DNA from: Chlamydiota bacterium
Lineage (GTDB): Bacteria; Auribacterota; Tritonobacteria; UBA1439
Length of the DNA: 15,143 bases
Assembly: GCA_037133055.1 (NCBI GenBank)
Contig: JBAXOY010000078.1
Span: 1-15,143, forward strand
Direction of reading: 5' to 3'
The translations under genes were made by a program, and so were the position numbers. Shown in pieces: positions 2,785 to 12,637 of this stretch; the stretch's first letter is position 1; every line of letters begins with the position of its first letter. The notes under the pieces were generated by a model that did no database searches, was not told the origin of the DNA, and saw only the letters and a list, made by a program, of their open reading frames with translations.

Positions 2785-3192
2785 CTATTCTTCCGTGGCC
2801 AGCGACACATCGTTGATCCCCGCCTCCTGGCACGCGTTCAGAACCGCCACGATGTTTTCGTGGTACGCCTTCGCGTCGCCGCGCACGAAGACCCTCGGTT
2901 TGCGCGCCTCCGCCATCGCCGCCTTGAGCCGTTTCGGCAGCTCCTCGATTGTGACCGGCGCGCCGCCCATGGTGATCTCCCCCCCCTTCGACACCGTGAC
3001 GGCGACGGGCTGAATGTCCATCGACACCGTTTCCGAGGACTTTGCCTTCGGAAGGTTTACCTGGAGCTCGCGCTGGACCCTCTGGAACGACGTGGCGACC
3101 AGGAAGAAGACGAGGAGATTGAAGACGACGTCGATCAGCGGCGTCATGTTCATCTCATCGCCTTCCGTCGACTTCCTCCGCACGAGTCTCAT
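2785..3192 (-). CDS. exbD: Biopolymer transporter ExbD/TolR
   Basis: NMTPLIDVVFNLLVFF with the essential TM Asp; C-terminal VFVRGDAKAYHENIVAVLNACQEAGI; ATGA overlap with exbB. Confidence 0.93.
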   Translation of the reverse strand: MRLVRRKSTEGDEMNMTPLIDVVFNLLVFFLVATSFQRVQRELQVNLPKAKSSETVSMDIQPVAVTVSKGGEITMGGAPVTIEELPKRLKAAMAEARKPRVFVRGDAKAYHENIVAVLNACQEAGINDVSLATEE

Positions 3193-3914
3193 TGCCCGCC
3201 CCTCCTCTCGAAGAGGTCCTCGAGGAACATCCTGAGCGTGATCTCCATCCGCTCGGAGATCCTCCCCTCCAGGAGGCCCCGGAAATAGTGGTAGAAGGCG
3301 AGCGCGGGGATGGCAATGAGAAGCCCCGAGGCGGTAGTGATAAGCGCCTCCGAGATGCCCGCGGCGAGGAGATCTGCCCTTCCCAGACCCGACTCAGAGG
3401 CCACCACGTTGAACGCCTTGATGATCCCGAAGATCGTCCCCAGGAGACCAAGGAGCGGGCTGATGTTCGAGATCACGAGGAGGGGCTTGATCCGCAGGGC
3501 GAGATCGTCCATCTCCCGCGCGCCGAGGTCCTCCACGGTGCTCCGGATCAGCGCGTTCGAGACCGACGGGCGCTCGTTCAGCGTCAGGGCGATGGTGAAC
3601 ACCGACGCGGCCGGGTTCCGGTGCTCCCGGCAGTAGTCCATCGCCCGTCCGTATTCGCCGGCCGACACGAGCGCGCGCACCTCCTTGGCGAACTTGAGCG
3701 GGACCACCCGGTCTGGGCGCATCGCGATGAACCGCTCCACGGCGAAGCCGAGCGCCAGTATGGAGCAGGCCAGGAGCGGCCACATCAGCACGCCCCCCTT
3801 CTGGAACTCCTCGTACCGCAGAGAGAACCATGAATCCGCGGCGCAGTACGCGGGAACCGCCGCCGCGCCGAGAAGCACCGCGCACACCGCCCACCCGCGC
3901 GTTCCATGTCTCAT
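3189..3914 (-). CDS. exbB: MotA/TolQ/ExbB proton channel family protein, with a probable N-terminal signal peptide
   Basis: GGVLMWPLLACS, SPLLGLLGTIFGIIKAF and GISEALITTASGLLIAIPA signature helices; adjacent to exbD. Confidence 0.92.
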   Translation of the reverse strand: MRHGTRGWAVCAVLLGAAAVPAYCAADSWFSLRYEEFQKGGVLMWPLLACSILALGFAVERFIAMRPDRVVPLKFAKEVRALVSAGEYGRAMDYCREHRNPAASVFTIALTLNERPSVSNALIRSTVEDLGAREMDDLALRIKPLLVISNISPLLGLLGTIFGIIKAFNVVASESGLGRADLLAAGISEALITTASGLLIAIPALAFYHYFRGLLEGRISERMEITLRMFLEDLFERRGGQ

Positions 3915-4960
3915 CGTGCACCCCCCTTCCCTTTTCCCCCGTCGGCGCCGGGGCGCTCACGCGCCCCGTTCGCCTCGGGCTTTTTCGTCCCCTGTGCCTG
4001 CCGCTTCTTCTCCGCCGCCGTCACCGTGAACGCGGGCCCCTTGTAGGACCAGACGGGACTGAACACCACCCGCTCGATCCCGTCGGGGTCGGCCTTCGAC
4101 GAGGAGTAATAGTCCTCCTCGGCCGCGATGATCGCCGCCATGGCGGCGACCGTGGGCGAGAGATAGGACCGCGCGGGCCCGTCCCCCGGCTCGCTGAGCG
4201 CCACGACCGCCGTCCCGGCGGCGGGCATCGCCGCGCGCTTCCCTTTCACCGCCCGCCCGGCGCGCGAGGAGAGGTTCTTGAACTGTCCCGGCGTGAGAAG
4301 CCATTGCGAGGTGAACTGGAGATTGAAATCGCTCACCTTCCTGCTCCCGTACCCGATCTCCATCTTGAACTGGTCCATCAGGCGCCCGATCTCGAAATCC
4401 GAGCATTTCCTGAGGTCGATCACCCGCTGGTAGCCGACCGCGCCCTCCTCCGCCTGCGCGGCCTCGCCGCTGACGACGTCTGCCTCCCTGGAGACCCAGG
4501 CGCGCGCGTCGATTTGTCGGTCCGCGAGAATCTCCCTGAGACGCGCTTCTTTCGTTTTTGCCGACTTCTCCGCGGTCTGGGGGGAGAGAACCTGCGAGAG
4601 CTTCCGCGACAGCTCCTCTTTGCCGTAGACCGGCCGCCGCCCGGGGGCCTTCTCCGCCGGCTTCGCCTGCGCCGCCTTCTCCGCCGGCTTCGCCTGCGCC
4701 GCCTTCACCGCCGCCGGGGCCTTCACGGCCGAGGGCGCGCCTCCCGCGGGACGGGGCCTGAGCCTGAGCGAAACCGCCCTCGTTCCGGCCGGCCTCAGAC
4801 GGGCGGGCTTCGCGGACCAGGGCGGCCCGAAGGAGAAGAGGACCAGGAAATGCGCCGCGAACGAAGCGGCGAGGCAGAGGGCGAGGACCCTGCGGCGGCG
4901 CCGCCTCTCCCCGGCGCGCCACTCCTGCTCCCCGGCCTGCACCGCGTTTAACGTGCTCAT
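3911..4960 (-). CDS. Single-pass membrane protein, TonB/TolA-like energy transducer candidate with unrecognised C-terminal domain, 349 aa
   Basis: Poly-Arg stretch, then TM helix with SFAAH (SxxxH), then Ala/Lys/Pro linker with AAQAKPAEK repeats; ATGA-coupled to both neighbours. Confidence 0.7.
   Translation of the reverse strand: MSTLNAVQAGEQEWRAGERRRRRRVLALCLAASFAAHFLVLFSFGPPWSAKPARLRPAGTRAVSLRLRPRPAGGAPSAVKAPAAVKAAQAKPAEKAAQAKPAEKAPGRRPVYGKEELSRKLSQVLSPQTAEKSAKTKEARLREILADRQIDARAWVSREADVVSGEAAQAEEGAVGYQRVIDLRKCSDFEIGRLMDQFKMEIGYGSRKVSDFNLQFTSQWLLTPGQFKNLSSRAGRAVKGKRAAMPAAGTAVVALSEPGDGPARSYLSPTVAAMAAIIAAEEDYYSSSKADPDGIERVVFSPVWSYKGPAFTVTAAEKKRQAQGTKKPEANGARERPGADGGKGKGGAR
4647..4706. repeat. 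27-bp tandem repeat (2.2 copies) encoding AAQAKPAEK
   Basis: gccttctccgccggcttcgcctgcgcc at 4647-4673 and 4674-4700, plus a partial third copy. Confidence 0.9.
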
Positions 4961-7524
4961 TCCTCCACGACCCAGTCTTCCTCGGCCTGCTCCGCCGCTT
5001 CCTCCCCTTCCTTGAGCTGCTCCTCGGAGTCGTCCTTGACCTCCTTCGCCTTGTCGATCGTCTCGGACGCCTTATCCTTCGCCTCGTCGTACTCGGCGCG
5101 CTCGAACCGGTCGTTCGCCTCCTTCAGGAGGTCCTTCGCCTCGTCCAGGGCCGTGCGCAGGTCGTCAAACTCCTGGTCGAGCTTATCCTCGGTCTCCTCC
5201 ACCGCGTCCTCGGCATCCCGGACGGCGCTGTCGGCATCATCGATCTCCTTCTGCGCGTTCTCCCGCTGGCCCCCGGCCACGCCGAGGAGCTTCTCCGCCT
5301 CCTCGCGCGCGTCCTCGGCCTTGCCGAGGGCGTCGCGGGCCTTCTTTTCCGCGTCATCGAGCGTGCCACTCTCGATGAGCCCGGCCGCGTCGTCGGCGAG
5401 GTCCGTCGCCCTGTCGAGAAGGGCGCGCGCGTCGCGCATGTCGATCTTCTCCCCCTCCCCGCGATCGATCAGTTCCGTAACCGCATCGATTTCATCGCGG
5501 GCATTTTTAAGCGTGTCCTCCGCGCCCCCGCCCCCGCCCTCGCCCCCACGCACCGCCGCGAGATCGAGTTTTTCGGCGAGGGAACCCCTGAGGCGGGCAA
5601 TCTCCATCCCGGGGAACGTGTCCTTCAGCCCGAAATAGAAATCGATCCTTTTCCTCAACACCAGGTCCGGCCCGTCCACGTCGAGGACCTCGTTCTTCAG
5701 GAGGTCTCGGAAGATCCGGTCGATCTTCTGGTAGCCGCGCTGCGATGTCTCGTACCACGCGAGCGCGATCAGGAGCTGCGCCCGGTCCCGCAGATCGTCG
5801 TCGGGTTTCGCCGCGAGCAGCTCGTCGCAGCGCGCGTAGACCGTCGCCTCGTCGCCCACGAACGAGGCCTCGTACGCTCCCCGGAGGAGCAGCAGGAGCG
5901 CGCCCCGCTGCTGCGCCTTCCGCTGCGCGTAGAGATCGAGCATCTTCCCCGCCTCTCCCGCAAGGGCGCTCCGGGGGTGCTTCTCCACGACCATGCGGAA
6001 CTGCTTCACCGCCTTGTCGTACTCCTCAACCTCGTAGAGCTCCTTGCCTTTGGCGAAAAGCCTGATCGCCTCGGCTTCCTGCGCGGCCTCGCGCACGGCG
6101 CGGTCGCCGGGCGCCCGGCGCTCGCTGAGGGAGAGCGACCTCGTGGCGGCTTCGATATCCCCGGCGGCGATCGAACCGACGGCCGCCCGGAACAGCTCCT
6201 CCGACGCCAGCGCGTCCGGCGGGATATCCCGCATCGCGCCGGCGACCTGGGCGATCCGGGCCTGGCTCGACTTCCTCAGGCCCCCCGCCCCTTCCGGGAC
6301 GGCCGCGTAGAGGGCGGCGGCCCTCATGAGGGCATCGTTCGCGGCGAACGGCTTCCCTTCGAGGCGGGCCTTGCCGGCGGACGCCTCAAGCCTGTTCGCC
6401 TCGCGGTAGACCCGCCACGCGTTCTCGGGCACGTCCATGTCCCTGAGCTCGTTCAGGCCGTAGAGGGCGCCGATCGCCCCGGTCGTCCGGTCGGGCTGGT
6501 ATCCCTCCCGCAGGAGGATCGCGAGCGCAGTCCGCGCGCTGTCCTTCAAGCCGGAATCGACGCATCGCTGGGCGAACGCCGAGAGGGCCGTCAGGAACAG
6601 CGCCTTCTGTTTCCCGCCCGCGGGGGAGGGAATCTCGACACCGGCGGCCCTCATCTCCTTATCGAGAGCCTCGAGGTCGCGCACGATCGCGTACCGCTCC
6701 AAGGCGGTCTCGATCGTGTCGATCTGCGGCGGCCCCGTTTCCCCCGCGATCAGGCGGTAGGCAGCCGCGGCCTCCGGCTGCATTCCGCGCCGGAGATAAA
6801 ACCCGCAGGCATCGCGATAAAAATCGTCGAGGGATTTCGGGCTCACCTGCGCCTTTCGCTCCGCCCCGACCGTCGCGAGCGCGTTCCGCACGAGGGACGC
6901 CGCGGCCTGCGCGGAGCCCGCCGCCGCCTGCCGCGTGATGGTGTTGTAGCCCCGCCCTGCGAGGTACTGCGCACGCACGGGCCCCGCCCAGCCGGACGAC
7001 CGGTCGAGAGCGCTTTTGAGCGCGGATGCGGGGTTGGCGAGGACCCTGGACGCCGCGGGCGGGGCGTCAAGGTCGGCGGGATGCGCCTCGATATCCCGCA
7101 GGAAGCGCTCCCTGATGCCGGCCGCGTCCGGCGGGGCCCACGCGGGCAGCGGAAAGCTCATCTCGATCAGGGTGCGCGTGAGGACGCCGAGACGATAGGC
7201 CATGTACGGGGATCGCTCGGAGGGAAAGAGTGCGCGGGCGAGCGCGATCTGCGCGGCGAGCGCGCCCGCGGCGGTCGCCGCGGCGTCAACGCCCGCGATG
7301 CCCGCGTAGGAGAACGCCGTCGCGGGCGCGGCGTCGAGCCCCTCGCGGAAATACTCCGGATGGGAGCGGAGGAAATTCGGGACGGCCCCCTCGAAGCCGG
7401 CGAGCGCCGCGGCGGTCACCCTGTCGACCACGATGTCCGCGCCGTGGGCGGGGCGGAGAATGAGGCAGAGGGCGCACGCGCAGAGCGCGGAGAGACAGGG
7501 GTGCGGTGCGGTGCGCGCGGCCAT
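4957..7524 (-). CDS. Large secreted TPR / helical-repeat protein, about 855 aa (alternative TTG start at 7533)
   Basis: Signal peptide ending AHG-A; TPR-like LFAKGKELYEVEEYDKAVKQFRMVVEKHPRSALA (BamD/CpoB-type); Gly linker GGEGGGGG; acidic Ala-rich helical C-terminal repeats; stop overlaps the next ATG. Confidence 0.85.
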   Translation of the reverse strand: MAARTAPHPCLSALCACALCLILRPAHGADIVVDRVTAAALAGFEGAVPNFLRSHPEYFREGLDAAPATAFSYAGIAGVDAAATAAGALAAQIALARALFPSERSPYMAYRLGVLTRTLIEMSFPLPAWAPPDAAGIRERFLRDIEAHPADLDAPPAASRVLANPASALKSALDRSSGWAGPVRAQYLAGRGYNTITRQAAAGSAQAAASLVRNALATVGAERKAQVSPKSLDDFYRDACGFYLRRGMQPEAAAAYRLIAGETGPPQIDTIETALERYAIVRDLEALDKEMRAAGVEIPSPAGGKQKALFLTALSAFAQRCVDSGLKDSARTALAILLREGYQPDRTTGAIGALYGLNELRDMDVPENAWRVYREANRLEASAGKARLEGKPFAANDALMRAAALYAAVPEGAGGLRKSSQARIAQVAGAMRDIPPDALASEELFRAAVGSIAAGDIEAATRSLSLSERRAPGDRAVREAAQEAEAIRLFAKGKELYEVEEYDKAVKQFRMVVEKHPRSALAGEAGKMLDLYAQRKAQQRGALLLLLRGAYEASFVGDEATVYARCDELLAAKPDDDLRDRAQLLIALAWYETSQRGYQKIDRIFRDLLKNEVLDVDGPDLVLRKRIDFYFGLKDTFPGMEIARLRGSLAEKLDLAAVRGGEGGGGGAEDTLKNARDEIDAVTELIDRGEGEKIDMRDARALLDRATDLADDAAGLIESGTLDDAEKKARDALGKAEDAREEAEKLLGVAGGQRENAQKEIDDADSAVRDAEDAVEETEDKLDQEFDDLRTALDEAKDLLKEANDRFERAEYDEAKDKASETIDKAKEVKDDSEEQLKEGEEAAEQAEEDWVVEE

Positions 7525-7568
7525 GCGGGTCAAACCCTATCCCCCGCGCCCCCGCGCGGGTTCCGGCC

Positions 7569-7579
7569 TGTGGTATAAT
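7569..7579 (+). promoter_or_regulatory. Extended -10 sigma70-type promoter (TGTGGTATAAT) for the ECF sigma gene
   Basis: Perfect TATAAT at 7574-7579 with TGTG extension, 72 nt before ATG 7652, standing out in a GC-rich background. Confidence 0.65.
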
Positions 7580-7651: not shown

Positions 7652-8233
7652 ATGGCCACCCACATTGCGCGGCTCCTCCAGGGCGACAAGGACGAGTGGG
7701 ACGAATTCGTCGATCGCTTCACTCCCGTCATCTGGGCCGCGGTGAAGGGCTCGATCTTCGCCCACGCGGGCTCGGTGAACGAGGAGGACGTGCGGGAGCT
7801 CGTCCAGTCCGTCTTCGTCCGCCTTGTCGCCCAGGAGTTCCGCCTGCTCAGGACCTACGACCCGGCGAGGGCGTCGCTCGTCACCTGGCTCACCATCGTC
7901 GCCAGGAGCGCGGCGATCGACTCCCTGCGGCGTCGGCGCCTTCAGGTCGTCCCGCTCGACGAGCGAGCGATGGATCCCCCTGCGCCCGAGGCGGTGTCCG
8001 ACTCCGGCATCGAGCTCCCGGGCAACCTGCTCTCGCCGCGCCAGAAGCTCGTTCTCCATCTCCTGTGCGATGACGGGATGGAAACGTCCGAGATCGCCTC
8101 GATGCTCGGCGTGGACGCGCAGACGGTGCGCAGCACGATCCACAAGGCGGTTTCCAAGCTGAGGAAGCATTTTAAAATCAGGAGCCTGAATCCCAGTTCC
8201 GGCGGGGATGTTTCGGCCGGATTATGCGTATAA
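7652..8233 (+). CDS. ECF-family RNA polymerase sigma-70 factor, 193 aa
   Basis: Region 2: DVRELVQSVFVRL...SLVTWLTIVARSAAIDSLRRR. Region 4: LSPRQKLVLHL...SEIASMLGVDAQTVRSTIHKAVSKLR. An in-frame TAA at 7646 fixes the start. Confidence 0.95.
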   Translation: MATHIARLLQGDKDEWDEFVDRFTPVIWAAVKGSIFAHAGSVNEEDVRELVQSVFVRLVAQEFRLLRTYDPARASLVTWLTIVARSAAIDSLRRRRLQVVPLDERAMDPPAPEAVSDSGIELPGNLLSPRQKLVLHLLCDDGMETSEIASMLGVDAQTVRSTIHKAVSKLRKHFKIRSLNPSSGGDVSAGLCV

Positions 8234-8234
8234 C
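8202..8234 (+). promoter_or_regulatory. Putative ECF promoter, copy 1: GCGGGGATG-N16-CGTATAAC, upstream of the anti-sigma gene
   Basis: Same boxes and spacing as the copy at 9816-9784 (minus strand); CGT-type -10; followed by GGAGG (8240-8244) and ATG 8251. Confidence 0.75.
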
Positions 8235-8250
8235 ATTGCGGAGGCGGATC

Positions 8251-8790
8251 ATGACCGGATCACGGGATGAATTCCGCGAGGCACGGGCACTCTGGAAGCG
8301 GGTGAAGGACAACGCCCCTCAAGGGGACCGCTCCGCCTGCCCGGGGCCCGGCGACCTCGCCGCCTATCTTGACGGGGCGATGCGCGGCGCGCAGCGCGGC
8401 GGGATCGAGGAGCATCTCCGTTTCTGTCCCCCCTGCGTCGAGGCGATTGCCGGGCTCCGCGTCCTGCTCCGCGCCGGCCCCTCCCCCGCGCCTTCAGCCG
8501 TCTTCGAGAGGGCGAAGGGGCTGGTGGCGGCGCCCGCCGCGGGCGAGCGGCGAATCAACGGCGTCATCGCGCTGCGCCATCTCTTCTCCCTCATGAGGAC
8601 CTCGGCGGCATGGGCGGCAGCCGCGGCGCTCATCGTCGCCGCGTGCGCCGCGGGCTTCATGATGGGGCAGGAGACGACTGCCCCCGCACAATCGGGGCAA
8701 GCCCCGGTTTCCGAACTCGGCGCGCACGCCCCCATCATTTCTGAATTCAACAGGCTGGAACAGCAGTTCCTGAAAGGCGACCCGTCATGA
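8251..8790 (+). CDS. Zinc-binding transmembrane anti-sigma factor (zf-HC2/ZAS), 179 aa
   Basis: CPGPGDLAAYLDG...EEHLRFCPPC (HxxxCxxC); TM helix WAAAAALIVAACAAGFMMG; short outer tail. Start moved to 8251 by the GGAGG RBS. Confidence 0.88.
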   Translation: MTGSRDEFREARALWKRVKDNAPQGDRSACPGPGDLAAYLDGAMRGAQRGGIEEHLRFCPPCVEAIAGLRVLLRAGPSPAPSAVFERAKGLVAAPAAGERRINGVIALRHLFSLMRTSAAWAAAAALIVAACAAGFMMGQETTAPAQSGQAPVSELGAHAPIISEFNRLEQQFLKGDPS

Positions 8791-9239
8791 ACAGGCTTTC
8801 CCGGAATCTCCTGCTCGTCGTCATGCTCGTGTCGATCGGCTTCAATATTTTTTTCATCGCCGGGTATAGGCGGGCCCGCTCAACCCTCGACAAATTGAAA
8901 ACCGACAGGGGCTATGTCCAGCTCCTCTCCCGCAGGCTCAACTTCACCCCCGAGCAGGAGACGAAGCTCGTCACGATCAGGGAAAACCTCCAGATGGATA
9001 CCGCGGCGTTCAACAAGGCCCACTCGCCTGAAATCGACGCGTTCTGGGACGAGATGGTCAAGGACAACCCGGACCCCGCGAAAATCCAGGTGTTGGAAAA
9101 AGCCCTGTCCGAGAAGCGCCAGGAGATTCGGCACCGGGTGGTCGGGCGGATCCGGGAGGCGTTCGCGTGCCTCACCCCCGCGCAGCGCCGCGACCTTGCC
9201 CGCATCATCAAGGACCGCAGTTTCCTGAAGCAGCTATAG
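8787..9239 (+). CDS. Membrane-anchored periplasmic Spy/CpxP/ZraP/CnrX-like (heavy-metal-sensor family) protein, 150 aa
   Basis: N-terminal anchor LLLVVMLVSIGFNIFFIAG; LNFTPEQ and LTPAQR (LTxxQ) motifs; NPDPAKI loop; ATGA overlap with the anti-sigma. Confidence 0.8.
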   Translation: MNRLSRNLLLVVMLVSIGFNIFFIAGYRRARSTLDKLKTDRGYVQLLSRRLNFTPEQETKLVTIRENLQMDTAAFNKAHSPEIDAFWDEMVKDNPDPAKIQVLEKALSEKRQEIRHRVVGRIREAFACLTPAQRRDLARIIKDRSFLKQL

Positions 9240-9339
9240 CCGGTCCCCCGCCCACGACCGGCCCGCCCCGGGGATGGGCCCGTCTTTAGGGAACCCCCGC
9301 GGGGTGGGGATCATCCATTCCCGATCCATACTCATCGGT

Positions 9340-9390
9340 AAAAAGCCGCCGCCGGGCCCCCCATCTTCAGGGAAACCCGGCGGCGTCGCT
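9340..9390 (-). terminator. Rho-independent terminator of the Gly/Pro-rich gene
   Basis: Minus strand has a 10-bp stem CGCCGCCGGG...CCCGGCGGCG followed by GCTTTTT, about 20 nt after the stop at 9409. Confidence 0.7.
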
Positions 9391-9408
9391 CCTGATTCAT
9401 CTCCCGCC

Positions 9409-9738
9409 TTACCACCATCTCGGCGCGTCGTAATACCCGGGATAATACACGGGCGGATTGTACACCACCACCGGCGGAGGAAGCGGCCTGTAGCCCCACC
9501 CGCCGTAGCCCGGGCCGTACCAGGGCCCCTGGTAGTTCCAGCCCCACCCGCCCGGCCTCGGCCCCGGCGGACACCCTTGGTTCCATCCCCCGTGCCTCGG
9601 CGGCCCGCCCCGTTGCCCCTGCCCCGGTCCGCCCCATCCCCCGCGTCCAGGGCCGCTTCGGCCGTCCCCGGCAGCCGCCTGCCCGGCCGCGAGCGCCAAC
9701 ACGAGCATGATGCCTGTCGCCACTGCGATCCTCTTCAT
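9409..9738 (-). CDS. Secreted low-complexity Gly/Pro/Trp/Tyr-rich small protein, 109 aa
   Basis: AAAGGAGG RBS at about 9746-9753; signal peptide MKRIAVATGIMLVLALAAGQAAA; mature part with GGWG repeats and PPPVVVYNPPVYYPGYY; terminator downstream. Confidence 0.8.
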   Translation of the reverse strand: MKRIAVATGIMLVLALAAGQAAAGDGRSGPGRGGWGGPGQGQRGGPPRHGGWNQGCPPGPRPGGWGWNYQGPWYGPGYGGWGYRPLPPPVVVYNPPVYYPGYYDAPRWW

Positions 9739-9783
9739 CCCGATCCCTCCTTTCGGTCGGTGCCATGCTGCATCTTCTACCGC

Positions 9784-9816
9784 GTTATACGGAAGAACCC
9801 CCCGCCGCATCCCCGC
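9784..9816 (-). promoter_or_regulatory. Putative ECF promoter, copy 2: GCGGGGATG-N16-CGTATAAC
   Basis: Reverse complement reads GCGGGGATG CGGCGGGGGGTTCTTC CGTATAAC, 45 nt before ATG 9738. Confidence 0.75.
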
Positions 9817-11338: not shown

Positions 11339-12637
11339 TCAGTCGTGAGGCCACATGAATTCGTCGAACACCGTCAGTACCGGCCAGCCCGTGACGCGAA
11401 GCCCCTGATACGGGGAGAAATCGCACCGCATGTGCAATGCGGCGTGGTCGATCGTCCGCGATGTTCCGGGATCATAGACGAAGAAGTCCGCCCTCTTCCC
11501 CTCCTCGATCCCCGTCCGCGGGGGAAGACCGAAGATCCCCGCGGCGTTCCCCGCCGAGAGCGCCGAGAGCTTCTCGTACGAGAGCCCCCGTTTCCTCCCC
11601 TCGCCGAAGAGGAGAGGCACCATCGTCTCGACGCCGGGGATGCCGAACGGGAGGCGGGTGTAATCCCCGCCCCACGTCTCCTTCTGGCCCTGCATGAACG
11701 GGCAGTGGTCGGTCGCGACCGTGTCTATCGACCCGTCCGCGAGCCCTCCCCAGAGCGCCTCGCGGTCCTCGTCCTTCCTGAACGGAGGGCAGCAGGTCGA
11801 GCAGAATCCGTCCGGCTCCGCGTATTTCGCCTCCGTGAGGAACAGGTACTGCGGGCACGTCTCGGCGTGAATGCGAGCGCCCGCCTTCCGGTGCCTCCGC
11901 ACCGCATCGAGCCCCGCAGCGCTGGAAAGATGGACGATATAGATTTGCGTTCGATATTTCGCCGCGAGCGACATGACGAAATCGATCGCGTGCGCCTCGC
12001 ACTCCGGCGGGCGGCTTCCGGGATACTGCGCGAGCGCGGTCTTCCCCTCCGCGACGAGGCGTGCCTGCGCCTTTGCGATCGAGGGGCCGTCCTCGGCGTG
12101 CACCATGAGGACGCAGTCCCGCTCCGCCGAGAAGCGGCAGATCCGGTCAAGGAGAGTACGGCCGACGGAGGCATCGTTCATGTGCACTTTGAACGAGCGG
12201 ACCCCCTCTGCGACACACTCCTCCATCTGCGCATCGAGGTCCGGAGGGTTCTCGGAGACCGCCACGTGGAGGAAGAAATCAGTCCGGCACCGCCCCTGCG
12301 CCGCCTCTCGCCTCGCACAAAGCGCGTGAATGAGCCGCTCACCCTTCTCCGGGTAGGCGAAATCGCCGAGCGTCGTGATGCCGCCCATGAGCGCCGCGCG
12401 CGAGCCGCTCTCGAAATCGTCGGAAGAGACCTTCCCGCTGACGGTAAGGAGCTCCACGTGCACGTGCGGGTCGATCGCCCCCGTGAGAATGACCTTCCCC
12501 GTCCCGTCCACCACCCGCGCCGCGCCCGTCTCCCCCACCCCGCCGACACGGACGACCTTCCCGCGATCGAGGGCCACGTCCGCCCGCTCGATCCCCCGCG
12601 GCGTCAGCACCTCGGCTCCCCTGATGACGAGATCCAT
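11339..12637 (-). CDS. hydA: Dihydropyrimidinase / D-hydantoinase (cyclic amidohydrolase), 432 aa (alternative TTG start at 12649)
   Basis: [19 protein letters not shown] (carbamylated Lys), VHAED, YIVHLS, ETCPQYL, PPFR, ATDHCPF and DFSPYQG motifs. Confidence 0.88.

Follow-up and report, generated by a model that had tools for sequence, protein, structure and literature searches.

A conserved two-box motif after an extracytoplasmic function sigma factor gene in a genome of the Tritonobacteria as a candidate sigma-dependent promoter of its anti-sigma gene

About half of the extracytoplasmic function (ECF) sigma factors have no known autoregulation according to the available part of Todor 2020 (PMC7776599), which describes a motif-discovery pipeline that searches upstream of the sigma gene, of its operon or of a divergent gene. 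Because such a pipeline looks upstream only, promoters located 3' of a sigma gene are missed. Here we describe a candidate promoter of this kind in a 15,143-nucleotide contig (JBAXOY010000078.1 of assembly GCA_037133055.1; this whole stretch is hereafter called the window) from an organism deposited as a Chlamydiota bacterium and placed by GTDB in the Tritonobacteria (Auribacterota). The element is a two-box motif, GCGGGGATG-N16-CGTATAAC, found at the junction of an ECF sigma gene with a predicted anti-sigma gene and again ahead of a convergent gene for a small Gly/Pro-rich protein.

In its mode of action the module likely resembles, by analogy, CnrH-CnrY-CnrX of Cupriavidus metallidurans (ECF291), for which the available text of PMC6851896 describes a single-pass anti-sigma factor, a membrane-anchored partner of the PF13801 type and a sigma-dependent promoter, cnrYp, in front of the anti-sigma gene. 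Unlike the promoter considered here, cnrYp also drives the sigma gene (gene order Y-X-H); CnrY is a non-ZAS anti-sigma factor, the targets are efflux pumps, and the sigma factor of the window is ~20% identical to CnrH. E. coli RpoE provides, in the accessible part of PMC8595263, a precedent for a sigma-dependent promoter located in or after the sigma gene and transcribing the anti-sigma operon only, namely rseAP3. RpoE also autoregulates, however, and rseAP3 adds to that autoregulation, whereas the anti-sigma site is the dominant conserved site in the family of the window; rseAP3 further differs in lying ~230 nt upstream of rseA and in its boxes.

Three groups in Casas-Pastor 2021 (PMC7826278, as far as its text was accessible), ECF111, ECF281 and ECF290, share with the window the succession of an ECF gene, a single-pass anti-sigma gene at +1 and a gene for an LTXXQ/heavy-metal-resistance protein at +2, and their promoters were sought upstream of the sigma gene. 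The predicted ECF111 promoter, TTGAACCT-GTCTAAA, is autoregulated, and the family of the window shows neither that sequence nor, in most loci, a motif that would point to autoregulation. The ECF281 neighbourhood, in which a zinc-finger, single-pass anti-sigma factor is encoded at +1 and a heavy-metal-resistance protein at +2, agrees with the module of the window, but the ECF281 promoter GGAACTT-GTCTAA does not, no AAC-type box being present among the top 14 box pairs upstream or downstream of the family's sigma genes. The neighbourhood of ECF290 (a Pfam-less single-pass anti-sigma, a membrane metal-resistance protein at +2) fits the branch with Stellaceae-labelled proteins. The ECF290 promoter ACGG-CGT, of low information, has CGT in common with our motif, and (G/A)CGG partly coincides with the left end of GCGGGGATG, but the description does not contain the GGATG core; an assignment to ECF290 retains some probability. 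No -35 of the GGGATG type (GGGA, GGAT or GATG) was found in the group descriptions of the accessible text, and among the papers listed by literature searches GGGGATG with CGTA did not appear as an ECF promoter, the string belonging to a primer in the single ECF paper listed. A CGTA -10 is shared, as given in the accessible parts of the sources, with ECF11 (GTGATC-CGTA), ECF18 (TGCATCTT-CGTA), ECF23 (TGATAG-CGTATTA), ECF245/SigW (TGAAAC-CGTAT) and SigF (GTAACC-CGTA); the -10 of CGTA-type ECFs is read partly by an Asp at the position of Asn84, and none of those described there combines it with a GGGGATR -35. Two further candidates were set aside: ECF214, whose "TATATACG -35 / GGATG -10" is another arrangement, from Firmicutes/Bacteroidetes with RskA-like anti-sigmas, and the planctomycete ECF57-62, whose regulators differ. 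The ECF promoter specificity reported below is apparently new to the descriptions examined, whereas the gene order and an anti-sigma-only promoter already have precedents.

Position and conservation of the two-box motif

The features of the module and its surroundings are as follows.

7569 to 7579, + strand: extended -10 of the sigma70 type, TGTGGTATAAT, predicted to serve the ECF gene as housekeeping promoter
7652 to 8233, + strand: ECF sigma factor of 193 aa with no regions other than 2 and 4
8202 to 8210, + strand: putative -35 box of site 1, GCGGGGATG, conserved core GGGGATR
8227 to 8234, + strand: putative -10 box of site 1, CGTATAAC, with C(G/C)TANAA as its conserved core; transcription is predicted to start near 8240
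8251 to 8790, + strand: predicted anti-sigma factor, 179 aa, with a ZAS zinc-binding domain, one hydrophobic helix and a short C-terminal tail
8787 to 9239, + strand: Spy/CpxP/CnrX-like protein, 150 aa, whose N-terminal hydrophobic helix is predicted to be a membrane anchor; 4-nt overlap with the stop of the anti-sigma gene
9409 to 9738, - strand: predicted member of the regulon, a protein of 109 aa that is rich in Gly/Pro/Trp/Tyr and has a signal-peptide-like start
9784 to 9791, - strand: putative -10 box of site 2, CGTATAAC, predicted transcription start near 9778
9808 to 9816, - strand: putative -35 box of site 2, GCGGGGATG

The initial annotation of this DNA had reported 17 identical bases in two boxes with equal 16-nt spacing, each copy oriented before a ribosome-binding site and an ATG. 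Both copies, at 8202-8234 (+) and 9816-9784 (-), are indeed exact, and the two-match outcome was obtained in 0 of 200 dinucleotide shuffles. Site 1 is followed by the Shine-Dalgarno (SD) sequence GGAGG at 8240-8244 and the ATG of the anti-sigma gene at 8251, and site 2 by AGGAGG at 9751-9746 and the ATG of the Gly/Pro-rich gene at 9738. The spacers, said to be unrelated, are roughly so, with identity at 7 of 16 positions. Transcription start sites were predicted from RpoE numbering and would have C/G (site 1) and T/A (site 2) at -1/+1. Site 1 stands inside the annotated sigma open reading frame (ORF), the TAA stop codon of which (8231-8233) forms part of the -10 box.

Across the genome (2.99 Mb, 191 contigs) these are the sole copies without mismatch, and they rank as the top two, at 27.1 bits, under a matrix prepared without any site of this genome. 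On another contig, at G000:C85:4669 (+), there is a third site (GGGATG-N16-CGTATAAC); the ORF that follows it encodes a Tyr/Pro-rich protein of 118 aa whose start resembles a signal peptide. The pattern GGGATR-Nx-CGTATAA occurs three times with a spacer of 16 and never with spacers of 10-15 or 17-23, as compared with 0.066 occurrences expected from box counts, a value that overstates significance since the pattern was picked from two of the three counted sites. Six other sigma loci of the genome have nothing above 16.2 bits nearby. C1:27864 (GGGACG-N16-CGTATAAC, 18 bits) and C24:6308 were rejected as target sites, the gene downstream of the former not being convincing and no SD-led ORF following the latter.

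Conservation was assessed on five of six genome loci (L038, at 24% identity, being omitted), the best 80 of 522 confirmed metagenome loci and four loci of the window's family, the metagenome loci having been picked by protein E-value independently of the motif. Removal of loci more than 90% identical left 65, of which 61, the window included, had adequate downstream DNA. An unbiased count of gapped 4-mer pairs 3' of the sigma genes put two combinations on top, GGGA-N18-CGTA and GGAT-N17-CGTA, both occurring in 39 of 79 regions, and a CCTA variant was present in 19 of the 79; no comparable pair emerged upstream of the sigma genes. The family consensus, GGGGATR-N16-C(G/C)TANAA, lies just 3' of the sigma gene and before the anti-sigma start. 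The two-box pattern reported initially is real, and its 17-base extent has to be shortened to this consensus. Scanned with the matrix, 57/61 non-redundant loci have a site downstream of the sigma gene and 0/61 on the reverse strand, compared with 7/56 upstream of the sigma gene and 2/56 in divergent orientation. As checks on circularity, leave-one-out scoring again returned 57/61 and shuffles exceeded 12 bits in 5 of 1200 cases. The 12-base pattern of the window itself, with two mismatches at most, was found in 50 of 60 loci (reverse strand, 0/60; shuffles, 15/1200), and the spacer measured 16 in 55/60, with spacers of 14, 15, 17 and 18 each accounting for 0-5. A homologous anti-sigma gene typically starts 15-29 nt after the site and is followed, where the DNA sufficed, by a Spy-like gene. 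The motif is retained in hosts of 32-37% GC (Aminicenantes) as well as ~70% GC, and in Kiritimatiellae and Planctomycetota (Phycisphaerales).

A hold-out set of 251 Planctomycetota genomes yielded three new family members and two outgroup sigmas (28-30% identity). All three members have a 25.6-27.3-bit site ahead of the anti-sigma gene, whereas neither outgroup locus has a site above 12 bits, so that the scan beside ECF orthologues that had been proposed as a test came out in favour of the motif in both sets of loci. Conserved in position, strand and spacing, the motif tracks the anti-sigma gene: one hold-out genome, G171, has the order anti-sigma, Spy-like, sigma, and its best site now fronts the anti-sigma gene.

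The motif is bipartite with a fixed spacer of ~16 nt, is oriented before its targets and is conserved beside orthologues, as expected of an ECF target promoter. On these grounds, it is very probably a promoter, with GGGGATR as -35, a 16-nt spacer and C(G/C)TANAA as -10, that is read by the adjacent ECF sigma factor.

The sigma factor, its partners and the proposed circuit

The sigma factor was identified by Pfam (Sigma70_r2 and Sigma70_r4 above cut-off), TIGR02937 (69 bits vs a cut-off of 42.9), alignment, modelling and fold search; it belongs to the ECF (group 4) sigma factors, and the matches of the model and in the PDB are also ECFs. Of the 25 best NCBIfam models, none other than the superfamily model reached its cut-off. 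Its family is marked in the alignment by the strings TWLTIVARS and QTVRSxxHK, which were not found in the searched text of eight supplements of Todor 2020. The family search gave 1095/1473 candidates with E <1e-20, and a search from a Stellaceae-labelled member 2973/3637 with E <1e-30. Against a family hidden Markov model (HMM), all 149 scored proteins of a representative search reach at least 120 bits, while no more than 60 bits is reached by RpoE, by the genome's remaining ECFs or by two plasmid modules of the same architecture; two Planctomycetota sigmas, at ~110 bits, form a nearer outgroup. One same-architecture module, from Ensifer, has an unrelated sigma factor of 48 bits and lacks the motif (best 9.4 bits). 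Plasmid searches for cultured hosts returned only ECFs of 27-33% identity, the named homologues being metagenome-assembled genomes. The clade is apparently unclassified, as judged by the descriptions of the ECF groups. Within the window's phylum the sigma factor is present in 4/79 genomes, all of one family; G001 additionally holds an anti-sigma end and a partner gene at a contig start, and two genomes of the same family that are 95-96% complete (G005 and G007) yielded no sigma match and no strict site.

Upstream of the sigma gene of the window no copy of the motif was detected (best 3.5 bits), and the position equivalent to TGTGGTATAAT is occupied by TGTGGTATACT in G002, of the same genus. 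The sigma factors of relatives (73-95% identity) mostly stop ~7 residues past KHF, whereas that of the window runs on through site 1. This run-on (8180-8233) ends at the TAA of the -10 box, and a TGA near the stop position of the relatives is shifted by one base from the reading frame, so that the run-on reflects either an indel specific to this lineage or a mistake in the assembly.

Alignment to RpoE equates D90 with Asn84, S86 with Asn80, Q157 with Gly168, R160 with Arg171, S161 with Ser172, H164 with Phe175 and K165 with Arg176. In the accessible part of Dataset S3 of Todor 2020 (PMC7776599), Asp84 goes with CG at -13/-12 at 0.62 and with TG at 0.02, compared with 0.40 and 0.19 for Asn84. 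Consistent with this, C stands at -13 in 56/56 Asp sigmas of the family and TG in the lone Asn sigma. Ser161 (Ser172) likewise predicts the G found at -34. The invariant Q157 and near-invariant H164 may alter the reading of the -35 box. A covariation of -12 (CGTA/CCTA), of -9 and of the last -35 base with sigma residues was sought and rejected, the top columns lying off the DNA contacts and tracking clades; the distribution of CCTA requires 5 changes on the tree.

The product of 8251-8790 is predicted to be the anti-sigma factor, with zf-HC2 scoring above its cut-off (E 9.2e-6). Within the anti-sigma family 11/30 members match zf-HC2 and 19/30 do not: the zinc ligands are retained in one branch and lost in the branch with Stellaceae-labelled sigmas, while the remaining domain is conserved. 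An Aminicenantes genome (L034:1421-4386) has ~3 kb between sigma and anti-sigma genes, and there the motif remains with the latter. Members of the partner family match LTXXQ (28/30) and Metal_resist (27/30), and the best natural PDB match of the partner is Spy (E 1.2e-7). Ser16 and Asn20, within the hydrophobic helix of the partner, are invariant, and Trp121, Gly135 and Gly139 are conserved in the anti-sigma helix, a pattern suggestive of helix-helix pairing in the membrane.

By analogy with known ECF biology, a housekeeping promoter would keep the sigma factor at a steady level, and the single-pass anti-sigma factor would tether it to the membrane. Its release would follow an extracytoplasmic signal, for which the membrane-anchored Spy-like protein is the likely sensor, in the role that CnrX has for CnrY. 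The free sigma factor would then activate the site ahead of the anti-sigma gene, giving negative feedback and a graded, self-limiting response, along with sites before small secreted Gly/Pro/Tyr-rich proteins; the anti-sigma factor, the Spy/CpxP/CnrX-like partner and a few exported proteins would thus be transcribed, and the gene of the sigma factor itself usually not. The placement of the sites suggests that the wiring is mostly negative feedback. As the signal we slightly favour envelope or protein-folding stress over nickel/cobalt, since conserved His is lacking in the partner family; of the whole scheme this is the weakest step.

Alternative explanations and points of doubt

If the motif is such a promoter, its module might still be a nickel/cobalt sensor of the CnrYXH type with metal-binding targets, which we regard as unlikely, albeit the most serious of the alternatives. 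The Metal_resist matches of the partners speak for it, as do weak profile matches of the partner to NccX (E 0.028) and CnrX (E 0.11), the G171 gene order, which is that of cnrYXH, the His-rich character of some targets and a weak Atlas lead to RcnB (0.81). Spy is a far better match than either profile, however, and the 30 partners have no conserved His or Cys column, only two partly Met columns (10/30 and 9/30), in contrast to the ligands His42, His46, Glu63 and His119 given for CnrX in the accessible part of PMC6851896. Metal efflux genes, moreover, were not seen among the motif-led targets (including DUF1800, YHYH, CotH and planctomycete cytochrome c proteins).

It is improbable that the motif is instead a housekeeping sigma70 promoter, or the operator of another regulator, with the neighbouring ECF not its reader. 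TATAAC, close to the -10 hexamer TATAAT, is contained in CGTATAAC, the -35 box violates the Arg171 rule, and the strict pattern has 7 matches in 74 genomes without a family sigma, including two on one contig of G046, one of them before a primary-sigma-like gene. But the family does not retain the final T of the sigma70 hexamer (C 26, T 14, A 9 and G 8 of 57) while the C upstream is kept in 56/57; there is no TTGACA-like box, and a sigma70 scan reports neither site. Across phyla the motif accompanies a single sigma clade, and it does not occur next to other ECFs; it is neither a palindrome nor a direct repeat, and no other shared gene was seen in the examined loci. Matches in sigma-less genomes were discarded as background (G046, G015 and G042 hold only distant ECFs of 38-58 bits, G030 and G013 none). 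The two G046:C45 sites (L148 and L155; GGGATA-N16-CGTATAA) share a contig in a genome where no family sigma was found, and one directly precedes the primary-sigma-like gene; the pair may be a chance overlap with sigma70 -10 boxes or point to a missing sigma.

That the motif arose by chance, or as a by-product of coding constraint where the sigma gene ends, as the overlap of site 1 with the sigma ORF and its stop and the start of 11/57 family -35 boxes within the sigma coding sequence could suggest, can be dismissed, since the other 46/57 are non-coding, the sites begin 5 to ~200 nt from the gene end, the flanks of orthologous sites are only 23-33% identical, unlinked genes are preceded by the same motif, and shuffles, strand control and hold-out contradict it.

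Several observations weigh against a promoter read by the adjacent sigma factor. Four of the 61 loci lack a 16-spacer site, L036 and L094 having 17-spacer versions and L042 and L043 none, and the locus counts are not independent because the loci share descent. The predicted anti-sigma leaders are very short, 11 nt in the window. Invariant Arg160 (Arg171) predicts C at -31 (0.88; T 0.10, G 0.007, in the accessible part of the published code), but in the RpoE register this position of the motif is a T, and a shift by one base would make it a G, an apparent exception to the published residue-to-base code. Position -12 is variable (G 38, C 15, A 3, T 1 of 57) despite the preference of Asp84 for G, no contact residue accounts for the CCTA clade, and the D/N covariation, though in independent agreement with the code, hangs on one sequence. 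Under the broad family matrix nine sites of the genome exceed 20 bits, six of which have no annotated target and five of these no SD-led ORF. Finally, G003 has the module and yet only the anti-sigma site, and a paralogue on C50, Gly/Tyr-rich and 206 aa long, is not preceded by a site (-4 bits at best), so that not every such gene is a regulon member.

We put at even chances a broader interpretation, that this is an ECF clade outside current classifications (more than 1000 proteins, mostly of uncultured Alphaproteobacteria, Planctomycetota, Kiritimatiellota, Aminicenantota and the window's family), with a new -35 element, GGGGATR, that breaks the Arg171-to-C rule, probably via Gln157/His164, negative feedback only, a Spy-like co-sensor and a regulon of secreted low-complexity Gly/Pro/Tyr proteins. 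Wiring by negative feedback only would leave upstream-motif pipelines blind to the promoter, and mining sigma-to-anti-sigma junctions would then reveal the promoters of many "non-autoregulated" ECF groups. The presence of a highly conserved probable promoter after the sigma gene suggests a simple general route to the promoters of orphan ECF groups. The set of sigma factor, promoter and anti-sigma factor is directly testable in E. coli and predicted to be orthogonal to AAC-type ECFs.

Targets beyond the module and other features of the window

The convergent Gly/Pro-rich gene had been linked to the module as part of a mini-regulon. The link is strengthened by its orthologues in G001 and G002, both of the same genus, which are also motif-led. 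The regulon would extend outside the window and would in most cases not include the sigma gene. Orthologues of the convergent and C85 genes keep their boxes within flanks of 23-33% identity, the box identity being circular but the placement not. GGGATR-N16-CGTATAA has 14 matches in five module-bearing family genomes vs 7 in the other 74 genomes of the phylum, and the reversed pattern 3 across all 79. Of the 14, four precede anti-sigma genes, nine precede small Pro/Tyr/Gly-rich ORFs with signal-peptide-like starts and one lies at a contig end. Of 161 small ORFs that combine an SD with a hydrophobic N-terminus, only the C85 and 9738 genes have an upstream site above 18 bits, and these are the two highest in Pro + Tyr. 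The filter overlooked the C50 gene (start near 12567, -), the product of which begins in the manner of a signal peptide, contains GWGRGYGWGGGYG as tandem repeats, ends in a Tyr/Pro-rich tail and resembles the motif-led proteins in composition. Looser patterns raise the background: in G004, 4/7 matches are of the CCTACAA or CGTAGAA form and lack a comparable target.

Motif-led genes of other phyla encode, among others, DUF1800, YHYH, CotH and planctomycete cytochrome c proteins and an EF-hand-like protein. A second site in G171 stands before a gene for a secreted protein, a homologue of which is motif-led in Aminicenantes (31% identity, E 7e-30). Several uncharacterised secreted proteins of uncultured bacteria are thereby placed in one predicted regulon. 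DUF1800, motif-led in Phycisphaerales (L146, G083), also adjoins the unrelated ECF/anti-sigma/periplasmic-sensor module of an Ensifer plasmid (L165), which hints at a function common to different sigmas. Divergent from the rearranged G171 module (L177:1683-2783) is a gene for a Cys/Lys/Gly/His-rich repetitive secreted-like protein.

Elsewhere in the window, a divergent cluster at 2785-7533 (-) encodes what, from sequence features, would be a TPR-like exported protein of 858 aa, a proline-rich protein resembling TonB and ExbB/ExbD-like proteins; no motif lies ahead of it. The 109-aa protein has no Pfam match, and its Atlas matches are all below 0.9. Its gene is followed by one further feature, for which the fold z-score is -5.47 (0/200 shuffles).

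9347 to 9385, - strand: intrinsic-terminator-like hairpin 3' of the Gly/Pro-rich gene

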